From the IMG/VR virus record IMGVR_UViG_3300025000_000056: a stretch of 51,153 nt of DNA. The stretch is one strand, 5' to 3'. The translations under genes and the position numbers were made by a program. Source of the DNA: a virus. Lineage: Duplodnaviria; Heunggongvirae; Uroviricota; Caudoviricetes. Every line of letters starts with the position of its first letter. Position 1 is the first letter of the stretch. Below the pieces are notes generated by a model that saw nothing but the letters and a program-made list of their open reading frames with translations, was not told the DNA's origin and searched no databases. Shown piece by piece: positions 14,891 to 23,707 of this stretch.

Positions 14891-15283
14891 ATGGCAGAGT
14901 TAGATTACCAGGGAAGTTATAATCGATTATTTCCAATGAAGATGGGTACCACATCGTTTCTCATGGTCTATATCTTGTGGATGTTATCCGGTCGAGAGAA
15001 CCTTTATGGTAAGCAGATCGTTGATGATATAACCACTAAGCTAGAATCAAATTGGAAACCTTCTCATGGTCTTGTCTATCCAATCCTTAGAGATCTCGAA
15101 AAATCTGGATGGGTTCACGGATTTTGGGATAATCAAGAGTCCGATAAGAAGACTCGTCGCTTCTATAGTATTTCTAAGGAAGGCCGTGAAGAACTTGAGA
15201 AACGTAAATTAGAATATCTACCAATGTTTGAAGCAAGTCTCGGTGTTCTAAACACGATCATTAAAGATGTTTACAACAGGTAA
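14891..15283 (+). CDS. PadR-family transcriptional regulator
   Basis: LYGKQIV, PSHGLVYPILRDLEKSGWV, RRFYSISKEGREEL. Confidence 0.92.
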   Translation: MAELDYQGSYNRLFPMKMGTTSFLMVYILWMLSGRENLYGKQIVDDITTKLESNWKPSHGLVYPILRDLEKSGWVHGFWDNQESDKKTRRFYSISKEGREELEKRKLEYLPMFEASLGVLNTIIKDVYNR

Positions 15284-15352: not shown

Positions 15353-15478
15353 ATGACGCCAACTATCACCTGCCCCAAATGTAATTCTACGAACGTTGAT
15401 GTCGTAGACAAACAACGATTCCTGGAGAAATGTGTTTGTAAGGACTGCCAGGAGAAATTCAATGTTTCCAAACGGTAG
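15353..15478 (+). CDS. 41-aa zinc-ribbon protein (not in the ORF track)
   Basis: AAGGAGG RBS; MTPTITCPKCNSTNV...CVCKDCQEKFNVSKR. Confidence 0.75.
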   Translation: MTPTITCPKCNSTNVDVVDKQRFLEKCVCKDCQEKFNVSKR

Positions 15479-15492
15479 GTCGGCAATCGACC

Positions 15493-15527
15493 AAAGCCCC
15501 GATGATTAAAGTCATCGGGGCTTTTTT
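15493..15527 (+). terminator. Intrinsic terminator
   Basis: AAAGCCCCGATGA/TCATCGGGGCTTT 13-bp stem plus T6. Confidence 0.9.
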
Positions 15528-15574: not shown

Positions 15575-15612
15575 CATACACTAACATAGGACACAATGTG
15601 ACAGCATATTAT
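15575..15612 (+). promoter_or_regulatory. sigmaE-like (mother-cell sporulation) promoter(s) for the ftsK operon
   Basis: aCATAgg (15584-90), 14 nt, CATATTAT (15605-12) matches sigmaE geometry; a second consensus -10 CATACACT at 15575-82 has a weak -35; lies just after a strong terminator. Confidence 0.6.
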
Positions 15613-15630
15613 GTCCTAGGAGGTGAAATT

Positions 15631-16827
15631 ATGCAACAAAATCAATTCGTTGACAACGGCACAAGTCAAGAATTAAGTCAATCCCTACGTCGTTTGGTTT
15701 TACTCTGGAGAGGTCATGATATAGCATTAATTATTGAAGACGTAATTAAATTTAAGTACAACAAGACACCGATACCGCGAATCTTTAAGAAGTTTAAGTT
15801 AACTAAAACTGCTTGGGAATTCTTAATTAAACTACCAGCAGGCTACGCTTACAAAGATTTTAAAGCCATGGAAACATTATTCTCAGATGCCGTAGGGGAT
15901 GGTGCCGTTCAGATTAGCCGTCATGGTAAGGTGATTAAAATGTGTGTTTCAACTGAGAGACTTAAAGATTACTATCCATATAAGTTTGATCCAACTCTTT
16001 ATCCTAAGATGTATCTACCAATTCACTGTGGGTATACAGCGATTGGTGAAATTGTTAAGGACTTAAGTTCAATGGTCAATGTCTTGTGTGCCGGTCATCC
16101 GGGTTCCGGCAAATCAACCTGGATTCATTCGATTGCTATGAATTTAATTCACAACAACATGGTGAATCCTAAGGGTCTTGTGAATTTAGTCGTCATTGAT
16201 TTAAAACTTATGGAGTTTAAATATTTAGAGAAACATGCTTTGATCGTAACGCAAAAAGAAGACATCACGAATTTACTTCAATCGTGTAATCGTGAGATGG
16301 ATCGTAAATTAGCTATACTTTCTAAGGCCCGTTGTGTTAGGATTCAAGACTATATTAAAAAGGGAAATTCGATGCCCTTTACTGTAGTCATTGTCGATGA
16401 GCTAACAGAAATCTCTGATAATGAAGAAGCTCAGATCTTATTAAATCGTATTGCTCGCCTTGGCCGTGCGGCTGGCTGCCTGTTGGTATTCTCTACTCAG
16501 CGTCCCTCGGCTCAAACGTTTGCTAACTTCACAGAGACTCGTGCTCAGTTTCAAGCTAGTATGTGTTTTCATGTACGAGATGCTATGAATTCTATGATCG
16601 TTTTAGGTAATGAACTAGCAAGTCAGATTCCTAATAAGCCAGGTCGTGCAATATTTCAATATGATGATCAGCTAGAAACTCAGACCATGTGTCTGCCAAC
16701 TGATGATCCTGATAGAATGGAGGAGTTGCTTGATGCCATTAGCCCGCCCATCGTCCAAAACATACCCTTCTATACCAGTTTTAAATCAACCCGCACCGCA
16801 GAACTCCCAGTCCGTAAAAAGAAATAA
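15631..16827 (+). CDS. Soluble FtsK/SpoIIIE-family ATPase (coupling-protein-like)
   Basis: Walker A AGHPGSGKS, VIDLK, Walker B VIVDEL, RLGRAAG...STQRP, GRAIF; ATG 15631 follows GGAGGTG. Confidence 0.93.
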   Translation: MQQNQFVDNGTSQELSQSLRRLVLLWRGHDIALIIEDVIKFKYNKTPIPRIFKKFKLTKTAWEFLIKLPAGYAYKDFKAMETLFSDAVGDGAVQISRHGKVIKMCVSTERLKDYYPYKFDPTLYPKMYLPIHCGYTAIGEIVKDLSSMVNVLCAGHPGSGKSTWIHSIAMNLIHNNMVNPKGLVNLVVIDLKLMEFKYLEKHALIVTQKEDITNLLQSCNREMDRKLAILSKARCVRIQDYIKKGNSMPFTVVIVDELTEISDNEEAQILLNRIARLGRAAGCLLVFSTQRPSAQTFANFTETRAQFQASMCFHVRDAMNSMIVLGNELASQIPNKPGRAIFQYDDQLETQTMCLPTDDPDRMEELLDAISPPIVQNIPFYTSFKSTRTAELPVRKKK

Positions 16828-17521
16828 TCATATTCGATGTGTAAATAGGGATCGTGAAATCATGAAGTTTATTAATCAAGTCAAATACGCTAATACTGAA
16901 CAAATTAACTTAGTGAATTTTAAATCAAGTTCTATGAGGATGTGTCAAAGACGATTGCAGATCCTAAGTAAGTCAACGAAACGTCATCCAAATCCTCCGC
17001 TTAGGAGAGACCGGTATACAATCAATGAACCCTATTATTATTACAATGCGTCGAGTAAGAAATTAGATCAAATAGAACATATCTTAGGAGTTACCTGGAT
17101 TGTTACTTGGATGATTCATAAGCTCAGTGGCTGTGAGAAATTCTATAGCTTTGATCGTGAGGTTAAAGAGTATGAATCACAAGTTAGACTAAGACCGGAT
17201 GGTCTCATTGGGATTGAGAACCTCATGGAAAGGACGATTGATTTTACATTCATAGAATTTGATATCGAGGAGTCCGGTAATAAATTCTTGAAGGTTCCAA
17301 AGTATTGTAATCTTAAACTCTCTAAAGCCTATATGAAATCATGGTGGGTATCTAAAACAAAGTCGTTTCCTAGAATCTTAATCGTAACGACCGGTAATCC
17401 CAGAAAGATTAGAGATGCCATAGAGCGTGATAATTCAGAAGGTCTTGACTTTACTGTGGTGACACTCGATCAACTTAAGGAGGAATGTGGCTATGGGAGA
17501 AGCAGCCTACGTCATCTTTAA
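16733..17521 (+). CDS. Replication-relaxation (Replic_Relax-like) protein
   Basis: RDREIMKFI...EQI...CQRRLQIL wHTH, EHILGV, RPDGLI, FIEFDI, KVPKY; ATG 16733 follows GGAGGAG. Confidence 0.82.
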   Translation: MPLARPSSKTYPSIPVLNQPAPQNSQSVKRNNHIRCVNRDREIMKFINQVKYANTEQINLVNFKSSSMRMCQRRLQILSKSTKRHPNPPLRRDRYTINEPYYYYNASSKKLDQIEHILGVTWIVTWMIHKLSGCEKFYSFDREVKEYESQVRLRPDGLIGIENLMERTIDFTFIEFDIEESGNKFLKVPKYCNLKLSKAYMKSWWVSKTKSFPRILIVTTGNPRKIRDAIERDNSEGLDFTVVTLDQLKEECGYGRSSLRHL

Positions 17522-17726
17522 GCCAGGTGGTGAAGGATTTCCAATTATCGTTATTGTAATGCTTGCCTTTGTAGGATGGCTTGGTAAACAGATTGCTGGT
17601 TTTACTGAGAGTGGTAAGTCTGCACTCTTTGTTCAGACCCTTGTGACAATCATAGGAGTCGGTGTGGTTTTAAGAGCTGCTAAGGTTTTACTCGATGCTT
17701 TCTTTGCAACGGCTGGGTATAAATAA
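17493..17726 (+). CDS. Two-TM hairpin membrane protein, SpoIIIAC/AD-like
   Basis: Two hydrophobic helices separated by GK..A.FV.TL, as in SpoIIIAC; ATG 17493 is 9 nt after AAGGAGG. Confidence 0.55.
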   Translation: MGEAAYVIFKPGGEGFPIIVIVMLAFVGWLGKQIAGFTESGKSALFVQTLVTIIGVGVVLRAAKVLLDAFFATAGYK

Positions 17727-18308
17727 ATGACCCAGTGGATTGGTTTAGTCTTATTCATGATGGTTTTTACGTACGGCGCTTACGTTATACTTAAGGCTTT
17801 TGGTTTTAATGATCTTTCTAAGGGAGTTATAATTCTAACAATACTAATTATTGTTAAGAGTACAGTCGTAACTCTAACTCCTTATATTAAGGCCGCTCAA
17901 ACTAAGACAAATTCAATACAAAACTCATTAGATCGCGTTGCAAACTTCGGTCAAGGCAAATGGAATTCACCGATTAAAGGTAAGATCACACAAGAGTATG
18001 CTGGGAAGGATCATCATGGCCTTGACTTTGCGGCTCCCGCTGGAACTAAAGTCAAAGCCACACGAGAAGGTGACGTATCGAAAGTAGGATGGGATGATAT
18101 CTACGGCAATATGATTGTGATCGACCATGACCAGGGAATGCAATCAATCTACGGTCATTTATCCGGTATCGATATTAAAGTAGGATATCCCGTAGTCGCT
18201 GGCCAGACTATTGGTAGTTGTGGAACTACGGGGCATTCCACTGGGCCTCATTTACATTTTGAATTAAGACGTAACGGTCTGGCTGTTGATCCTATGGGGT
18301 ATTTGTAA
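17727..18308 (+). CDS. Membrane-anchored M23 (LytM) peptidase with a SpoIIIAC-like two-TM N-terminus
   Basis: HHGLD (HxxxD), YGHL, STGPHLHFE; N-terminal YVILKAFG...VIILTILIIV hairpin. Confidence 0.9.
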   Translation: MTQWIGLVLFMMVFTYGAYVILKAFGFNDLSKGVIILTILIIVKSTVVTLTPYIKAAQTKTNSIQNSLDRVANFGQGKWNSPIKGKITQEYAGKDHHGLDFAAPAGTKVKATREGDVSKVGWDDIYGNMIVIDHDQGMQSIYGHLSGIDIKVGYPVVAGQTIGSCGTTGHSTGPHLHFELRRNGLAVDPMGYL

Positions 18309-18337
18309 AGTAGCTAGGGATAATCCCTAGCTACTTT
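18307..18337. terminator. Bidirectional terminator between convergent genes
   Basis: AAAGTAGCTAGGGA-TAA-TCCCTAGCTACTTT 14-bp stem. Confidence 0.8.
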
Positions 18338-18339
18338 CT

Positions 18340-18654
18340 TTAGTCTAGATACATATTCTCATTCCAGGTAAGGATGTTGTCGACCACGACCATCTTATGA
18401 ATTCCATGGAGTTTAAAGTGTCTGTAGTTTGAATCTCGTAGCTCACATTTTGCTAAGAATCCATGACCCTTTTGGTTCGACTGCAAGAACTTAATAGGCT
18501 TTACCAGTCTTGCAGTGAACTGGTGATCAGAATCCGTGTACTCAATGTAGAGCCACTTGTCTTTCGTGATAGCAAATCCGATGATGGCCTGCTGTCTAAT
18601 GTAATTGAATTCTTCTAACATTCGACTACCCTCTTTAAACCATGCTTTAATCAT
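18340..18654 (-). CDS. Stand-alone WYL-like domain protein
   Basis: LYIEYTD...TARLVKPI...FLAKCELR...RHFKLHGIHKM pattern; RBS AAGGAGG. Confidence 0.7.
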   Translation of the reverse strand: MIKAWFKEGSRMLEEFNYIRQQAIIGFAITKDKWLYIEYTDSDHQFTARLVKPIKFLQSNQKGHGFLAKCELRDSNYRHFKLHGIHKMVVVDNILTWNENMYLD

Positions 18655-18745
18655 ATAAGTTCCTCCCTTAATTCTATGTCATTACCTTAATACTAGTATC
18701 ACCAATTCTATTACATTTATGCATTATATTTTGTAATATATTTAT

Positions 18746-18774
18746 GTATAACATTTTGGTACATGGACATACTA
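18746..18774 (+). promoter_or_regulatory. sigmaG/sigmaF (forespore) promoter
   Basis: GTATA (18746-50), 17 nt, CATACTA (18768-74) fits sigmaG consensus; GGacAtAcTA (18765-74) also fits the sigmaF -10. Confidence 0.75.
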
Positions 18775-18795
18775 CTATCATAAGGTGGTGAGGCG

Positions 18796-18870
18796 GTGAG
18801 AAAATTACTAGGAATTCTTGTTATAGCAACACCGTTTATTGGTTTATTGATTTACAAATTAATTCATTAG
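18796..18870 (+). CDS. 24-aa hydrophobic membrane peptide (not in the ORF track)
   Basis: GTG after AAGGTGGTGAGG; MRKLLGILVIATPFIGLLIYKLIH; its stop overlaps the next RBS. Confidence 0.6.
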   Translation: MRKLLGILVIATPFIGLLIYKLIH

Positions 18871-18882
18871 GAGGAATTAATT

Positions 18883-19146
18883 ATGGCAAAAGCACACGTT
18901 ATTAAACTAAGACCCAATCAGGAGCCAGACGTTAAATCAGTACTCGATCTGTTTCCGGATCTACTTAAAGAAAAGCAGCCTATTATTATCGTGTTGAATC
19001 AGACACCGCCAGCCGTTCAGCGCAGGGTTTTAACAAGGCCTAATCTAAAACACTTTAGCTCGAAGATTAACACTACATGGGAGACAGTGAGTAAAGTTCT
19101 GGCGGTTTTATTCGTTCTCTATGTGATCCATGGTCTTGCAAACTGA
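18883..19146 (+). CDS. Small protein with a C-terminal membrane anchor
   Basis: RBS AGGAGG; C-terminal VLAVLFVLYVIHGLAN. Confidence 0.7.
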   Translation: MAKAHVIKLRPNQEPDVKSVLDLFPDLLKEKQPIIIVLNQTPPAVQRRVLTRPNLKHFSSKINTTWETVSKVLAVLFVLYVIHGLAN

Positions 19147-19167
19147 TGTCTTATTAAAGAAATAGGC

Positions 19168-19205
19168 CATAAACTTTAATAAGAAAATCCTTATTAAAGT
19201 TTATG
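19168..19205. terminator. AT-rich 16-bp inverted repeat with an alternative pairing partner
   Basis: CATAAACTTTAATAAG/CTTATTAAAGTTTATG; a third copy CTTATTAAAG at 19150-59. Confidence 0.55.
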
Positions 19206-19214
19206 AGCTTACTG

Positions 19215-19243
19215 GAATGATTTTGGATAATTGTTCATACAAT
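19215..19243 (+). promoter_or_regulatory. sigmaE-like promoter
   Basis: Consensus -10 CATACAAT (19236-43); GAATGAT (19215-21) at sigmaE spacing. Confidence 0.5.
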
Positions 19244-19276
19244 TTGTAATAGAGATTGATATAAGGAGTGATTATC

Positions 19277-19462
19277 GTGGATATTGTAGCGGTTCAGAAG
19301 ATCTTAACAGATGCTATAAAGGAATATGAACTCACAGGGAATCTTCCTGCAGAGGTTCTCGTAAGTTTTATCTCAGTGGATATTTACCGGAAGCTTAATG
19401 CCGGTTCGTCCAAAGTTTCGAAGCCGAAATCGCCAGGGTTTCCCTCTGGTCACCCTTCTTAA
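19277..19462 (+). CDS. Small hypothetical protein
   Basis: AAGGAGTG RBS then GTG; C-terminal third overlaps an antisense structured element. Confidence 0.5.
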   Translation: MDIVAVQKILTDAIKEYELTGNLPAEVLVSFISVDIYRKLNAGSSKVSKPKSPGFPSGHPS

Positions 19463-19552
19463 AAACGTGCGACCCTACTCTCCCTAGTAAAACTACTCGT
19501 CTTTCATACATTCTAGCGTATGATGCGACGTACCAGTAAACGAACCAACCAC
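19398..19552 (-). ncRNA. Candidate structured non-coding RNA
   Basis: On the - strand GTGGTTGGTTCGT pairs with ACGAACCGGCAT (12 bp with G-U pairs, one bulge); internal hairpins TCATAC/GTATGA, GG-GAAA-CC, TTTCG-GCTT-CGAAA; TATAGT just upstream. Confidence 0.4.
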
Positions 19553-19580: not shown

Positions 19581-19748
19581 GTGCATAAATCTCTAATCAA
19601 CCATAGAGAAGGTAATGTATTGTATCCTAAGGCCTTTATTCATAGAATCTATAAAGCAAATTGGGAGCAGCTTAAGAAGTATTTAGATTCTAAGAATCCT
19701 TATCTATTACAGAAAACAAATAGCTCACTAGAAGTATTTCCCTTCTAG
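19581..19748 (+). CDS. Small hypothetical protein (55 aa; not in the ORF track)
   Basis: AAGGAG 10 nt before GTG; MHKSLINHREGNVLYPKAFIHRIYKANWEQLKKYL... Confidence 0.4.
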   Translation: MHKSLINHREGNVLYPKAFIHRIYKANWEQLKKYLDSKNPYLLQKTNSSLEVFPF

Positions 19749-19769: not shown

Positions 19770-19919
19770 TTATCGACTAGGCCCAAATTGTTCAAAGATC
19801 TTTCGAACCATTCTTCCGCCAACCGATCCGTTCTCACGACTTGTGCGATCTGCACCAAGTTGAATTCCTAATTCACGAGCTGTTTCCTCTTTATTAACGG
19901 GCATATTATACTTCGCCAT
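19770..19919 (-). CDS. ssp: Alpha/beta-type small acid-soluble spore protein (SASP), 49 aa; not in the ORF track
   Basis: AAAGGAGG RBS; MAKYNMPVNKEETARELGIQLGADRTSRENGSVGGRMVRKIFEQFGPSR has both SASP signatures (K.E.A.ELG and TSR.NGSVGG.M.K). Confidence 0.9.
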   Translation of the reverse strand: MAKYNMPVNKEETARELGIQLGADRTSRENGSVGGRMVRKIFEQFGPSR

Positions 19920-22372: not shown

Positions 22373-22914
22373 TACATATCCTCCTCGTAAGTGTCGTCCA
22401 CGATGGTGATAGCCTTTAGTTTATCTAAGAGACCCTCTTCCTGGAGGCGTCTAATGAGATAGCCCTTGGTGATATCTTTATCATACTTAATCGTTAGTAA
22501 GTTGATCCCTTGTTCAACGCAGAGACGAGCTTTAAGTTTATCACAGGCCCGCAAGTATTCAAAGGCTTCTTTTGTCTTGTGCATATATGAATTATACGTG
22601 TAATGTTGCCTGCCATTAAATTCAAAGGCTAGGTTGAGTTTAGGGAAGAACATATCAAGTTGCATGGGTTGATTCTTTGGCGACATGAGCCAATTATAAT
22701 AACCACCAATAATGTATTCATCGTTAGGAAGTATCATAGCCATGACCTTATGCATCTCACGTTCACTCTTACTTTGCTGAGGTAAATTAGCCTTAGGTTG
22801 TTTGTAAACTCCCTTATAGGGATTACATTTCTTACAAAACTTTGGCTTCTTGGTTTTGTAATTTAACTTGGCACCGCATTTCGTACAACTTGCTGTCTTA
22901 TACATACGTACCAC
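22372..22914 (-). CDS. Zinc-ribbon plus Vsr/DUF559-like endonuclease
   Basis: CTKC...CKKC; LDMFFPKLNLAFEFNGRQHY. Confidence 0.8.
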   Translation of the reverse strand: MVRMYKTASCTKCGAKLNYKTKKPKFCKKCNPYKGVYKQPKANLPQQSKSEREMHKVMAMILPNDEYIIGGYYNWLMSPKNQPMQLDMFFPKLNLAFEFNGRQHYTYNSYMHKTKEAFEYLRACDKLKARLCVEQGINLLTIKYDKDITKGYLIRRLQEEGLLDKLKAITIVDDTYEEDM

Positions 22915-23707
22915 CCCTTAGTTTAGCAATAGTTGCCAAACGCCTTCTGTTAATAGTTGCCCTACAGGTTCCTAGGATGTTTGCTATCTGCTGATCTGTG
23001 AGTTCATCAATATAATAAAGCTTAATGATCTTTCGATCAAAGATACTTAATGTATGAAACGAATCCGAACAGGTAAGCCCGTTAACCCAGTTATCGTTGA
23101 TCTCATCCATGTCGTCTTCAATGCTTGAGGCCTCCATAGAAGCAATCCACTCATCTGAATGGTCCATATCAGATTCAATATACTGTGATAAATAATCCGC
23201 GTCTTCATCAGAATCAAAGCTTTGATTATTCTTTGCTTGAAAGACAACGGGGTCTGAGATAAGAGTCCGTAGCTGTCGGTGAAGTTGATAAGCAAATGTT
23301 TTATCTACGTAGTAATGAAATCGTGGTTTACCATCGGGTGATTTATAACGCTTAGCAAGCGTTAGTAAGGCAAGCGCTGTCTCTTGTATGATTTCTTCAT
23401 AAGAGTACTTGCTGAAGAATCCCTTAATTGAATTAGTGATCTTATAGATTTCATTGTGAGCAAATCGAGATCGTCTAAACCTATGAAGGTTAGCTCGTGT
23501 CAGAGGATTTGAAATATAAAGACTGATGAATTGCCGTTGTCCCCTGCGGGAAGCACTGATGGTTCCCTTTTTAATCAAGTTAACAAACTGAGCCATGTAT
23601 TCTTTGAATGCTATCAATAATTGTTCGGCCGCGCCTGATTTGTTTTCTTGATAAGCAAGGACTAAGGCTTCAGTTTCTTCATACGTAAACCGTTTAGTGT
23701 CTGTCAT
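22898..23707 (-). CDS. Phage sigma70-family RNA polymerase sigma factor
   Basis: Region-2-like EIIQETALALLTLAKRY...RFHYYV; region 4 IIKLYYIDELTDQQIANILGTCRATINRRR. Confidence 0.82.
   Translation of the reverse strand: MTDTKRFTYEETEALVLAYQENKSGAAEQLLIAFKEYMAQFVNLIKKGTISASRRGQRQFISLYISNPLTRANLHRFRRSRFAHNEIYKITNSIKGFFSKYSYEEIIQETALALLTLAKRYKSPDGKPRFHYYVDKTFAYQLHRQLRTLISDPVVFQAKNNQSFDSDEDADYLSQYIESDMDHSDEWIASMEASSIEDDMDEINDNWVNGLTCSDSFHTLSIFDRKIIKLYYIDELTDQQIANILGTCRATINRRRLATIAKLRGGTYV

Follow-up and report, generated by a model that had tools for sequence, protein, structure and literature searches.

A coupling-type ATPase and relaxase-like nuclease cassette of a groundwater jumbo phage as a candidate system for delivering phage DNA to the forespore

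Four tightly packed plus-strand genes (15631-18308; open reading frame [ORF] calls, Pfam, PHROGs, and hydropathy) in a 51,153-nt stretch of the viral record IMGVR_UViG_3300025000_000056 (Caudoviricetes; hereafter, the window) encode an FtsK-like ATPase, a Replic_Relax-type nuclease, a membrane hairpin of two helices, and another such hairpin joined to an M23 peptidase. We infer that this cassette is a DNA-processing and translocation unit derived from conjugation machinery, without a secretion channel, which is placed as an insulated unit in a small sporulation island. The leading reading, which we put forward tentatively, is that the cassette delivers phage DNA from the mother cell to the forespore of a sporulating host. 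It leads because it covers more of the features described below than the alternatives do: the promoters of the relatives, a forespore-type promoter and a small acid-soluble spore protein (SASP) gene in the window, the host range, the transcriptional insulation, and the presence of other replication genes. The source is an uncultured groundwater jumbo phage of ~220 kb, because a cassette protein was found letter-identical on groundwater-metagenome contigs of 220-229 kb and the gene blocks of the window are convergent (nucleotide-metabolism and early genes on the plus strand; structural genes, including one for a 2129-aa protein, on the minus strand). Beyond the window, the record analyzed was a 117-kb fragment, about half of the phage genome. 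The alpha/beta-type SASP gene, which is encoded by the minus strand ~1.5 kb past the 3' end of the cassette, indicates that the host is an endospore former.

The gene identities given in the first-pass annotation of this DNA hold (Pfam, PHROGs, hydropathy, and relatives; Table 1), as does the insulation of the operon by terminators, with one hairpin that separates the cassette from the upstream genes and another at the operon end. Depending on where gene 2 starts, it either follows gene 1 after 34 nt or overlaps it; its 3' end runs 29 nt into gene 3, and gene 4 begins directly after gene 3. The imperfect inverted repeat that precedes the ribosome-binding site of gene 1 might act as an operator or form a leader hairpin. 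A search of the 117-kb record gave no VirB4-like gene (AAA_10), the sole AAA_10 match being the cassette ATPase itself, in agreement with the earlier statement that no type IV secretion system (T4SS) gene lies nearby. At the nucleotide level, the cassette had no match in the phage and plasmid collections.

The ATPase (398 aa) contains a Walker A motif (GHPGSGKS at residue 155) and a Walker B motif (VVIVDE at residue 252), and has no transmembrane (TM) segment. Its best PDB match was 6o1w, a 'DNA translocase coupling protein' (2.1e-14, residues 45-350), which we take to be TcpA of the Clostridium perfringens conjugative plasmid pCW3. TcpA is treated in reviews as an FtsK-type coupling protein (PMC7434980). 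FtsK chains in PDB matched the ATPase core only (~100 residues in the best stretch), and the NCBIfam models of FtsK (48 bits, cut-off 1566), TraB (47 bits, cut-off 800), and EssC all remained far below their cut-offs. Based on these comparisons, gene 1 is predicted to encode a coupling-type ATPase, not a SpoIIIE orthologue. SpoIIIE/FtsK orthology was considered and rejected, given that the protein has no multi-pass N-terminal membrane domain and that the NCBIfam FtsK model covers only its core. Over the soluble domain the protein is closer to TcpA than to FtsK, but it has neither the N-terminal TM domain nor, in the 117-kb record, the VirB4-like partner of a TcpA-type protein. The ATPase alone, when searched in viral contigs, found no close relative.

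Gene 2 matched PHROG 9381 (phrog_9381; 'replication initiation by nicking') at 1.4e-8. The window protein matched no Pfam family even at E 5; its 45% identical counterpart on a related viral contig (L004) scores 36.6 bits with the Pfam Replic_Relax model (PF13814; cut-off 25.3), and precomputed 'faint' Replic_Relax matches are recorded on many members of the subfamily. With 67 relatives as input, AlphaFold modeled the gene 2 product confidently (predicted local distance difference test: 93). The model returned MunI, EndoMS, BstEII, FokI, and the BspD6I nickase as top PDB folds with weak E-values (1e-3 to 1e-2), and D113, E132, and K144 are invariant in the 67 relatives. As modeled, the protein has a PD-(D/E)XK restriction-endonuclease fold, and the model and invariant residues agree with the published placement of Replic_Relax in the PD-(D/E)XK superfamily and the MOBC relaxase class (PMC3424549, PMC5357655). 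The pairing of a relaxase-type nuclease with a coupling-type ATPase, on which the earlier proposal had been built, is upheld by the 6o1w match and the Replic_Relax relative. The true start of gene 2 is uncertain, and coupled or unusual initiation is possible: homology to the relatives starts at ~16826, 12 codons 5' of the called ATG (16862), at the very point where the ATPase gene has its stop codon; there is no canonical start codon between 16826 and 16862, the nearest upstream ATGs in frame being those at 16733 and 16703. The window nuclease, used as a tblastn query, gave two weak Geobacillus phage matches and no plasmid.

The four genes recur in unchanged order on contig L004 (39-51% identical), and nuclease pattern searches found more copies in groundwater viral contigs, a Desulfitobacterium hafniense Y51 prophage (AP008230), a Desulfosporosinus metagenome-assembled genome (MAG), and the more distant contig L101. 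The four-gene core is present in at least nine loci, all of which keep the ATPase, the nuclease, the hairpin, and the second hairpin. A profile search of 1.84 billion representatives for the subfamily recovered 636 clusters at E<=1e-3, with 97 passing E<=1e-30; in the contexts sampled, one of them a Moorella MAG, the cassette was at a prophage end next to integrase or lysis genes. The closest cassettes are those in prophages of D. hafniense Y51 and of the Desulfosporosinus and Moorella MAGs. The cassette is common to the jumbo phage and to temperate phages whose hosts are of the Desulfitobacterium, Desulfosporosinus, and Moorella types.

The temperate relatives have a small gene 5' of the ATPase gene that is ribbon-helix-helix-like by sequence reading, and a noncoding element behind the cassette that consists of four short direct or inverted repeats with a hairpin at the end (Table 1). 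The repeat is GACCGAT in the groundwater clade, whereas D. hafniense and Desulfosporosinus have different repeat words. This conserved element could be an origin of transfer (oriT), a clt site, or an iteron, serving as the cis site for the nuclease or the ATPase. The clt site of Streptomyces plasmids adjoins traB, which recalls the position of the repeat element beside these cassettes.

The M23 domain of gene 4 (Pfam M23 6.3e-34, 116.5 bits, cut-off 28.7) has intact zinc motifs (HxxxD, HHGLD, at residue 96; HxH, HLH, at residue 175). The hairpin part of this protein is kept in all relatives, and the M23 domain is found only in the window and the groundwater clade. Because the fourth protein is a hairpin alone in D. 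hafniense, Desulfosporosinus, and L101, the core of the cassette comprises, as far as these sequences tell, the ATPase, the nuclease, and the two hairpins, with the peptidase as an add-on. In another prophage lineage (L187 3584-4585; L188 932-1933), an M23 peptidase gene and a holin gene, apparently lysis genes, are located directly 5' of the ATPase gene, and the cassette may thus have acquired M23 domains from adjoining lysis modules. The predicted cytoplasmic loops of the hairpins span only ~8 residues, and the two hairpins may be paralogous (hhalign probability 80%). The presence of a signal peptide in L101 and the necessarily extracellular position of the M23 domain would place both termini of the hairpins outside and only the short basic loop inside. 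In L101 (5582-5911), this N-terminal signal peptide precedes the conserved part of the first hairpin, and the resulting layout (leader, two hydrophobic helices, basic loop) resembles that of a T4SS pilin.

The proposed relation of these proteins to SpoIIIA and SpoIIQ is not supported as homology. Neither hairpin matched any Pfam family, including PF06686, and comparison with 31 host-lineage SpoIIIAC/AD segments gave hhalign probabilities of 0.7% for gene 3 and 38% for the second hairpin; a language-model search placed a cluster with SpoIIIAC in 14% of its members at rank 2 (score 0.85), no more than a lead. SpoIIQ identity was rejected for gene 4: the NCBIfam SpoIIQ model gave 63.3 bits (cut-off 250) and generic M23 enzymes scored higher, the protein has two TM helices instead of one, and it is encoded by the last gene of an operon behind a mother-cell-type motif. 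The likeness to SpoIIIA/SpoIIQ would be functional at most, and the M23 domain is absent from three relatives. Among 5.8 billion proteins, the N-terminal part of the M23 protein matched only itself.

Promoters were scored with a sigmaF matrix from host-lineage spoIIR promoters and a sigmaE matrix from spoIIIA promoters, each of which derives from one orthologous promoter and is therefore narrow. The genes spoIIIAC/AD and spoIIR are present in all 26 sampled genomes of the class to which the Desulfosporosinus MAG belongs, and the host-lineage genomes share a sigmaE-type promoter 5' of spoIIIAA (e.g., TGTCTAA-N15-CATACCTT) and GT(T/C)TAA-N15-GG(A/C)A..A.T 5' of spoIIR. Directly after the terminator and before the cassette, three groundwater temperate-phage variants carry GAATATA, GAATAAA, or TAATATT followed by N15-CATACCTT, with a -10 identical to that of the host-lineage spoIIIA promoters. 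The strict sigmaE-type pattern occurs once per 10-12-kb locus in these variants, in which the spacer has diverged and the -35 and -10 are kept, and the host spoIIIA matrix ranks the site first (L085) or second (L004, L086) among all positions on both strands. The sole strict sigmaF-type match of each of these three loci (GCATA-N14/15-GGTAATAAT or GGACATAAT) is found directly after the cassette and precedes the gene of a 91-aa exported DUF4359 protein. The recurring order in the nearest relatives is a sigmaE-type promoter, the cassette, a sigmaF-type promoter, and a small exported protein. A complex prediction for the L004 M23 domain and the exported DUF4359 protein scored 0.00, which is no evidence either way.

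In the window, the strong sigmaF/G promoter that the first-pass annotation had located downstream of the operon is the best of 234,666 positions of the 117-kb record by the sigmaF matrix (18.1 vs 14.9 for the next site), a score reached by one of 20 shuffled windows. Its spacer is 2 nt shorter than in the host spoIIR promoters. The site is a putative forespore promoter of the sigmaF/G type, two classes that the matrix, built from spoIIR only, does not separate. It sits in a 140-nt intergenic region before ORFs of 24 and 87 aa. On the minus strand of the same spacer, a sigmaF-like motif (GCATA-N14-GGTGATACT, 18695-18722) points at the WYL-like gene, so that the two sites form a divergent forespore-type promoter pair. 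Upstream of the operon, the candidate mother-cell -10 element CATACACT fits what we take to be the Bacillus subtilis sigmaE -10 consensus, and no sigma-70-like site was found before the operon on the plus strand. Two further sigmaE-type motifs follow the forespore-type promoter, one listed in Table 1 and the other (CATACATT, 19505-19512) an intergenic -10 on the coding strand before an ORF at 19581-19748. Three of the four plus-strand CATACAHT matches in the window fall within 15.5-19.6 kb.

Table 1 Features of the cassette region in the window, and the noncoding repeat element of related contigs
Feature	Position	Strand	Description
Intrinsic terminator-like hairpin	15493-15524	+	14-bp stem with 7 GC pairs, then T run; upstream of cassette
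Candidate mother-cell (sigmaE/K-type) -10 CATACACT	15575-15582	+	48 nt before start codon; perfect -10, poor -35
Imperfect inverted repeat	15587-15618	+	14-nt arms, 86% complementary; between -10 element and ribosome-binding site
Gene 1, soluble FtsK/TcpA-like coupling-type ATPase (predicted)	15631-16827	+	398 aa; Pfam FtsK_SpoIIIE (PF01580) 1.5e-17, 64.3 bits (cut-off 24)
Gene 2, Replic_Relax (MOBC-type, PD-(D/E)XK) nuclease/relaxase-like protein	16703-17521 (open frame)	+	Called start 16862
Gene 3, two-helix membrane hairpin	17493-17726	+	77 aa; TM 11-35 and 43-69; kept in all cassette relatives
Gene 4, second two-helix hairpin fused to M23 peptidoglycan endopeptidase	17727-18308	+	193 aa; TM 4-24 and 27-52
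Terminator-like hairpin at operon end	18307-18337	+	15-nt arms, 100% complementary
WYL-domain-like gene	18340-18654	-	104 aa; PADLOC WYL models (defence systems) 8.7e-13 and 3e-6
Putative forespore-type (sigmaF/G) promoter GTATAA-N13-GGACATACTA	18746-18774	+	-10 GGACATACT identical to three host-lineage spoIIR promoters
24-aa ORF	18796-18870	+	One TM segment, good ribosome-binding site; behind forespore-type promoter
87-aa protein	18883-19146	+	C-terminal TM segment; orphan
SigmaE-consensus-like motif GAATGAT-N14-CATACAAT	19215-19243	+	Before small ORF 19268-19462
Alpha/beta-type SASP gene	19770-19919	-	49 aa; Pfam SASP (PF00269) 2e-11, 44.1 bits (cut-off 22); same gene called in 220-kb contig
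Noncoding repeat element (candidate cis site)	L004 6600-6790; L085, L086 6400-6600; L092 6113-6320; L099 2655-2830		

The two-gene core of the cassette is also known from temperate phages and plasmids of Bacillus and Geobacillus as an FtsK/SpoIIIE and 'replication-relaxation' pair (GBSV1, Wbeta/gamma-like phages, BtCS33, Curly, RBClin15, pLW1071), with ATPases 24-31% identical to the one studied here. Unlike in the cassette, no TM protein follows the pair in the three loci read, and the upstream regions share another conserved motif, CATAGGCTA. This 9-mer is located 165-270 nt 5' of the pair operon (L001 ~3245, L002 ~4273, L003 ~4608) in Geobacillus phage GBSV1, plasmid pLW1071, and a B. mycoides plasmid, with AC 16-17 nt before it in two of the three; it fits the sigmaK -10 form CATA---TA and may represent a late mother-cell promoter or a site of protein binding. 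Host range was searched by tblastn with the Bacillus-type partner protein of GBSV1 against a collection of 72,556 plasmids and against phage records. Of the plasmids, 345 carried the protein (Bacillus, Priestia, Geobacillus, Parageobacillus, Brevibacillus, Anoxybacillus, Paenibacillus, and similar genera), and the named genera are all endospore formers (one more genus is unnamed in the output). It was also present in 26 phage records, which are Bacillus-type except for one labeled Stenotrophomonas and two labeled Staphylococcus (MW302330.1, HE614281.1, and NC_018277.1; phages TS-12 and SpaA1, respectively). In identity and coordinates, the SpaA1 match equals that of Bacillus phage BceA1, and the host labels of the TS-12 and SpaA1 records may be wrong. 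The earlier expectation that the cassette is confined to phages and plasmids of spore formers is thus borne out by the closest prophages and the 345 plasmids, with two odd-labeled phages: within the collections searched, the host range appears confined to endospore formers, a pattern with which host kinship is confounded and which extends as far as the limited reach of tblastn. Members of the Replic_Relax family at large are known from Actinobacteria and streptococci as well (PMC3424549, PMC5357655).

If the cassette serves forespore delivery, it would be transcribed in the mother cell after asymmetric division, and the nuclease would nick or mark the phage DNA at a site in cis. With the hairpins holding it at the membrane, the ATPase would pump the DNA across the mother-cell/forespore interface toward the forespore, and the M23 peptidase would open the septal wall, such that phage DNA stranded in the doomed mother cell would reach the spore. 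The parts list (P-loop DNA pump, small hairpin proteins, M23/LytM domain) and the proposed setting at the mother-cell/forespore interface are shared with SpoIIIE and SpoIIIA-SpoIIQ of B. subtilis. Unlike that system, the cassette consists of non-orthologous proteins, its ATPase has no membrane and gamma domains, and its M23 domain, catalytically intact by its motifs, is encoded in a putative mother-cell operon, whereas SpoIIQ is expressed in the forespore. Streptomyces plasmid pSVH1 offers another parallel, in that TraB and the Spd membrane and peptidoglycan-binding proteins spread plasmid DNA through septal cross-walls, combining an FtsK-like pump, small membrane proteins, and a wall-directed activity with no T4SS, and carrying an element from one compartment to another of a single organism (PMC4447253). 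TraB differs from the cassette ATPase by having its own membrane and DNA-recognition domains and needing no relaxase; there is no sequence kinship beyond the ATPase, and its hosts are not endospore formers.

Several observations weigh against forespore delivery. An integrated prophage reaches the spore without such a machine. The sigmaE-like promoter that the first-pass annotation had seen before the operon has a perfect -10, but its -35 is poor and it is not among the top matches of the host-derived sigmaE matrix, and we consider it weak in the window itself. SigmaE -10 motifs occur in the window at chance level (8 seen vs 7 expected), as do sigmaG-type motifs (2 seen vs 2.3-2.7 expected), and therefore motif presence alone proves nothing. 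The anticipated conservation of the motif upstream of homologs applies to the three nearest variants but not to the more distant relatives (L092, L099, L183-L189; including D. hafniense, Desulfosporosinus, and Moorella), which have no convincing sigmaE-like promoter. Near the window cassette, repeat clusters that might mark a cis site are at chance level only, and the motifs of the relatives (GACCGAT, GGACCARGT, and CATAGGCTA) show no clustering in the window. The peptidase assigned to wall opening is missing from the three relatives in which the fourth protein is a hairpin alone. Genes behind the forespore-type promoter are non-homologous between the window and the relatives; the 24-aa ORF has no homologue in the cassette relatives and the 87-aa protein has itself as the sole match among 5.8 billion proteins, which leaves the idea that they are forespore-side receiving subunits without support. 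The phage also encodes a divergent sigma-70-family factor (22898-23707, minus strand; region 4 match, with weak matches to ECF, FliA, and SigB/F/G models), which could itself read the promoter motifs discussed. Finally, the FtsK/SpoIIIE gene of Bacillus phage Fah is assigned in a review to the delayed class of an ordinary infection, in which early and late genes depend on the sigmaA holoenzyme (PMC4113786).

An ordinary mobilization module, which would pass DNA to other cells via the T4SS of a co-resident element or via a minimal hairpin pore, is an unlikely alternative that nevertheless accounts for the best solved relative of the ATPase (the 6o1w coupling protein) and for the ribbon-helix-helix-like gene and oriT-like repeat element of the relatives. 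A coupling-protein gene 5' of a relaxase gene with no T4SS is the compact mobilization module of Firmicutes integrative mobilizable elements, and Replic_Relax belongs to the MOBC class (PMC5357655). The cassette is like these modules, like those of small plasmids, and like TcpA of pCW3, in having an ATPase gene followed by a relaxase-type gene and no T4SS genes; it is unlike them in that the ATPase has no N-terminal membrane domain, two hairpins and an M23 domain follow, the promoters are of the sporulation type, and the carriers are phages. The plasmids that carry the pair can be read either way, with 120 of the 345 typed as mobilizable or conjugative and 225 as non-mobilizable. Mobilization leaves the mother-cell- and forespore-type promoters and the restriction to spore formers unexplained, and conjugative transfer of a lytic-looking 220-kb phage seems unlikely. 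In streptococcal elements, moreover, MOBC relaxases pair with VirD4 and not with TcpA (PMC5357655), and the cassette ATPase has no membrane anchor.

We give a similarly low probability to a replication or segregation module, in which the Replic_Relax protein would start replication by nicking and the ATPase would resolve or partition the copies at the septum. The database names ('replication initiation by nicking', 'replication initiation protein') favor this view, as do the ParM/StbA partition genes that adjoin the pair on Geobacillus and B. mycoides plasmids, the non-mobilizable typing of most carrier plasmids, and the RBClin15 paper, in which the pair operon is treated as a replication and maintenance part (PMC11526630). 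As the principal reading, a replication module of the phage was rejected in view of other replication genes: the L004-type phages have separate O-like (weak, E 0.005) and DnaD-like (by sequence reading) genes, and nucleotide and DNA metabolism genes of its own accompany the cassette in the jumbo phage. Nor would replication account for the hairpins, the M23 domain, the insulated transcription, or the promoters of the sporulation type.

A defence, exclusion, or host-manipulation module, acting on competing phages or DNA or on engulfment or mother-cell lysis, is the least probable of the alternatives: an ATPase, a nuclease, and TM proteins are a common defence layout, and the prophage cassettes occupy an accessory-gene position between lysis genes and integrase with their own promoter and terminator, but the PADLOC matches of the ATPase (P-loop parts of SspH, mad8, and HerA) concern a generic ATPase domain only, the nuclease, hairpin, and hairpin-M23 proteins match nothing in PADLOC, the closest specific relatives are conjugation proteins, and there is no link to known defence hot spots.

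Among the other neighbors of the cassette, a gene just 5' of the upstream terminator (14891-15283) encodes a PadR-family protein with a further match to the replication terminator protein (RTP) family and is followed by a 41-aa zinc-ribbon ORF (15353-15478).

The four-gene cassette and its promoters were not described in the literature searched on the gene pair, Replic_Relax, phage sporulation genes, and spore entrapment, a search that left most subscription journals outside. That literature holds annotations of the pair, lists of sporulation-like phage genes, and, for phage FtsK/SpoIIIE, a role called undetermined with speculation on sporulation (PMC4113786, PMC3853048). FtsK/SpoIIIE homologues are among the most often noted 'sporulation-like' genes of Bacillus phages, and the locus and its relatives make the question of their role testable by providing a four-gene core, promoters that match those of the hosts, a candidate cis site, and a host range of endospore formers in the collections searched. 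If the cassette only mobilizes or maintains DNA, it still represents a new subfamily with unusual membrane partners. Forespore delivery, if true, would be a new use of conjugation parts inside a single developing cell. A broader and more doubtful extension is that FtsK-like and Replic_Relax modules on phages and plasmids of endospore formers constitute a general spore-entry system based on intra-sporangium, conjugation-like transfer of extrachromosomal DNA into the forespore, to which the cassette would add two membrane hairpins and a wall hydrolase. Such a system would explain how low-copy plasmids and infecting phages enter spores, and this route of viral and plasmid persistence in spores would bear on phage-host dynamics in soils, sediments, and guts.

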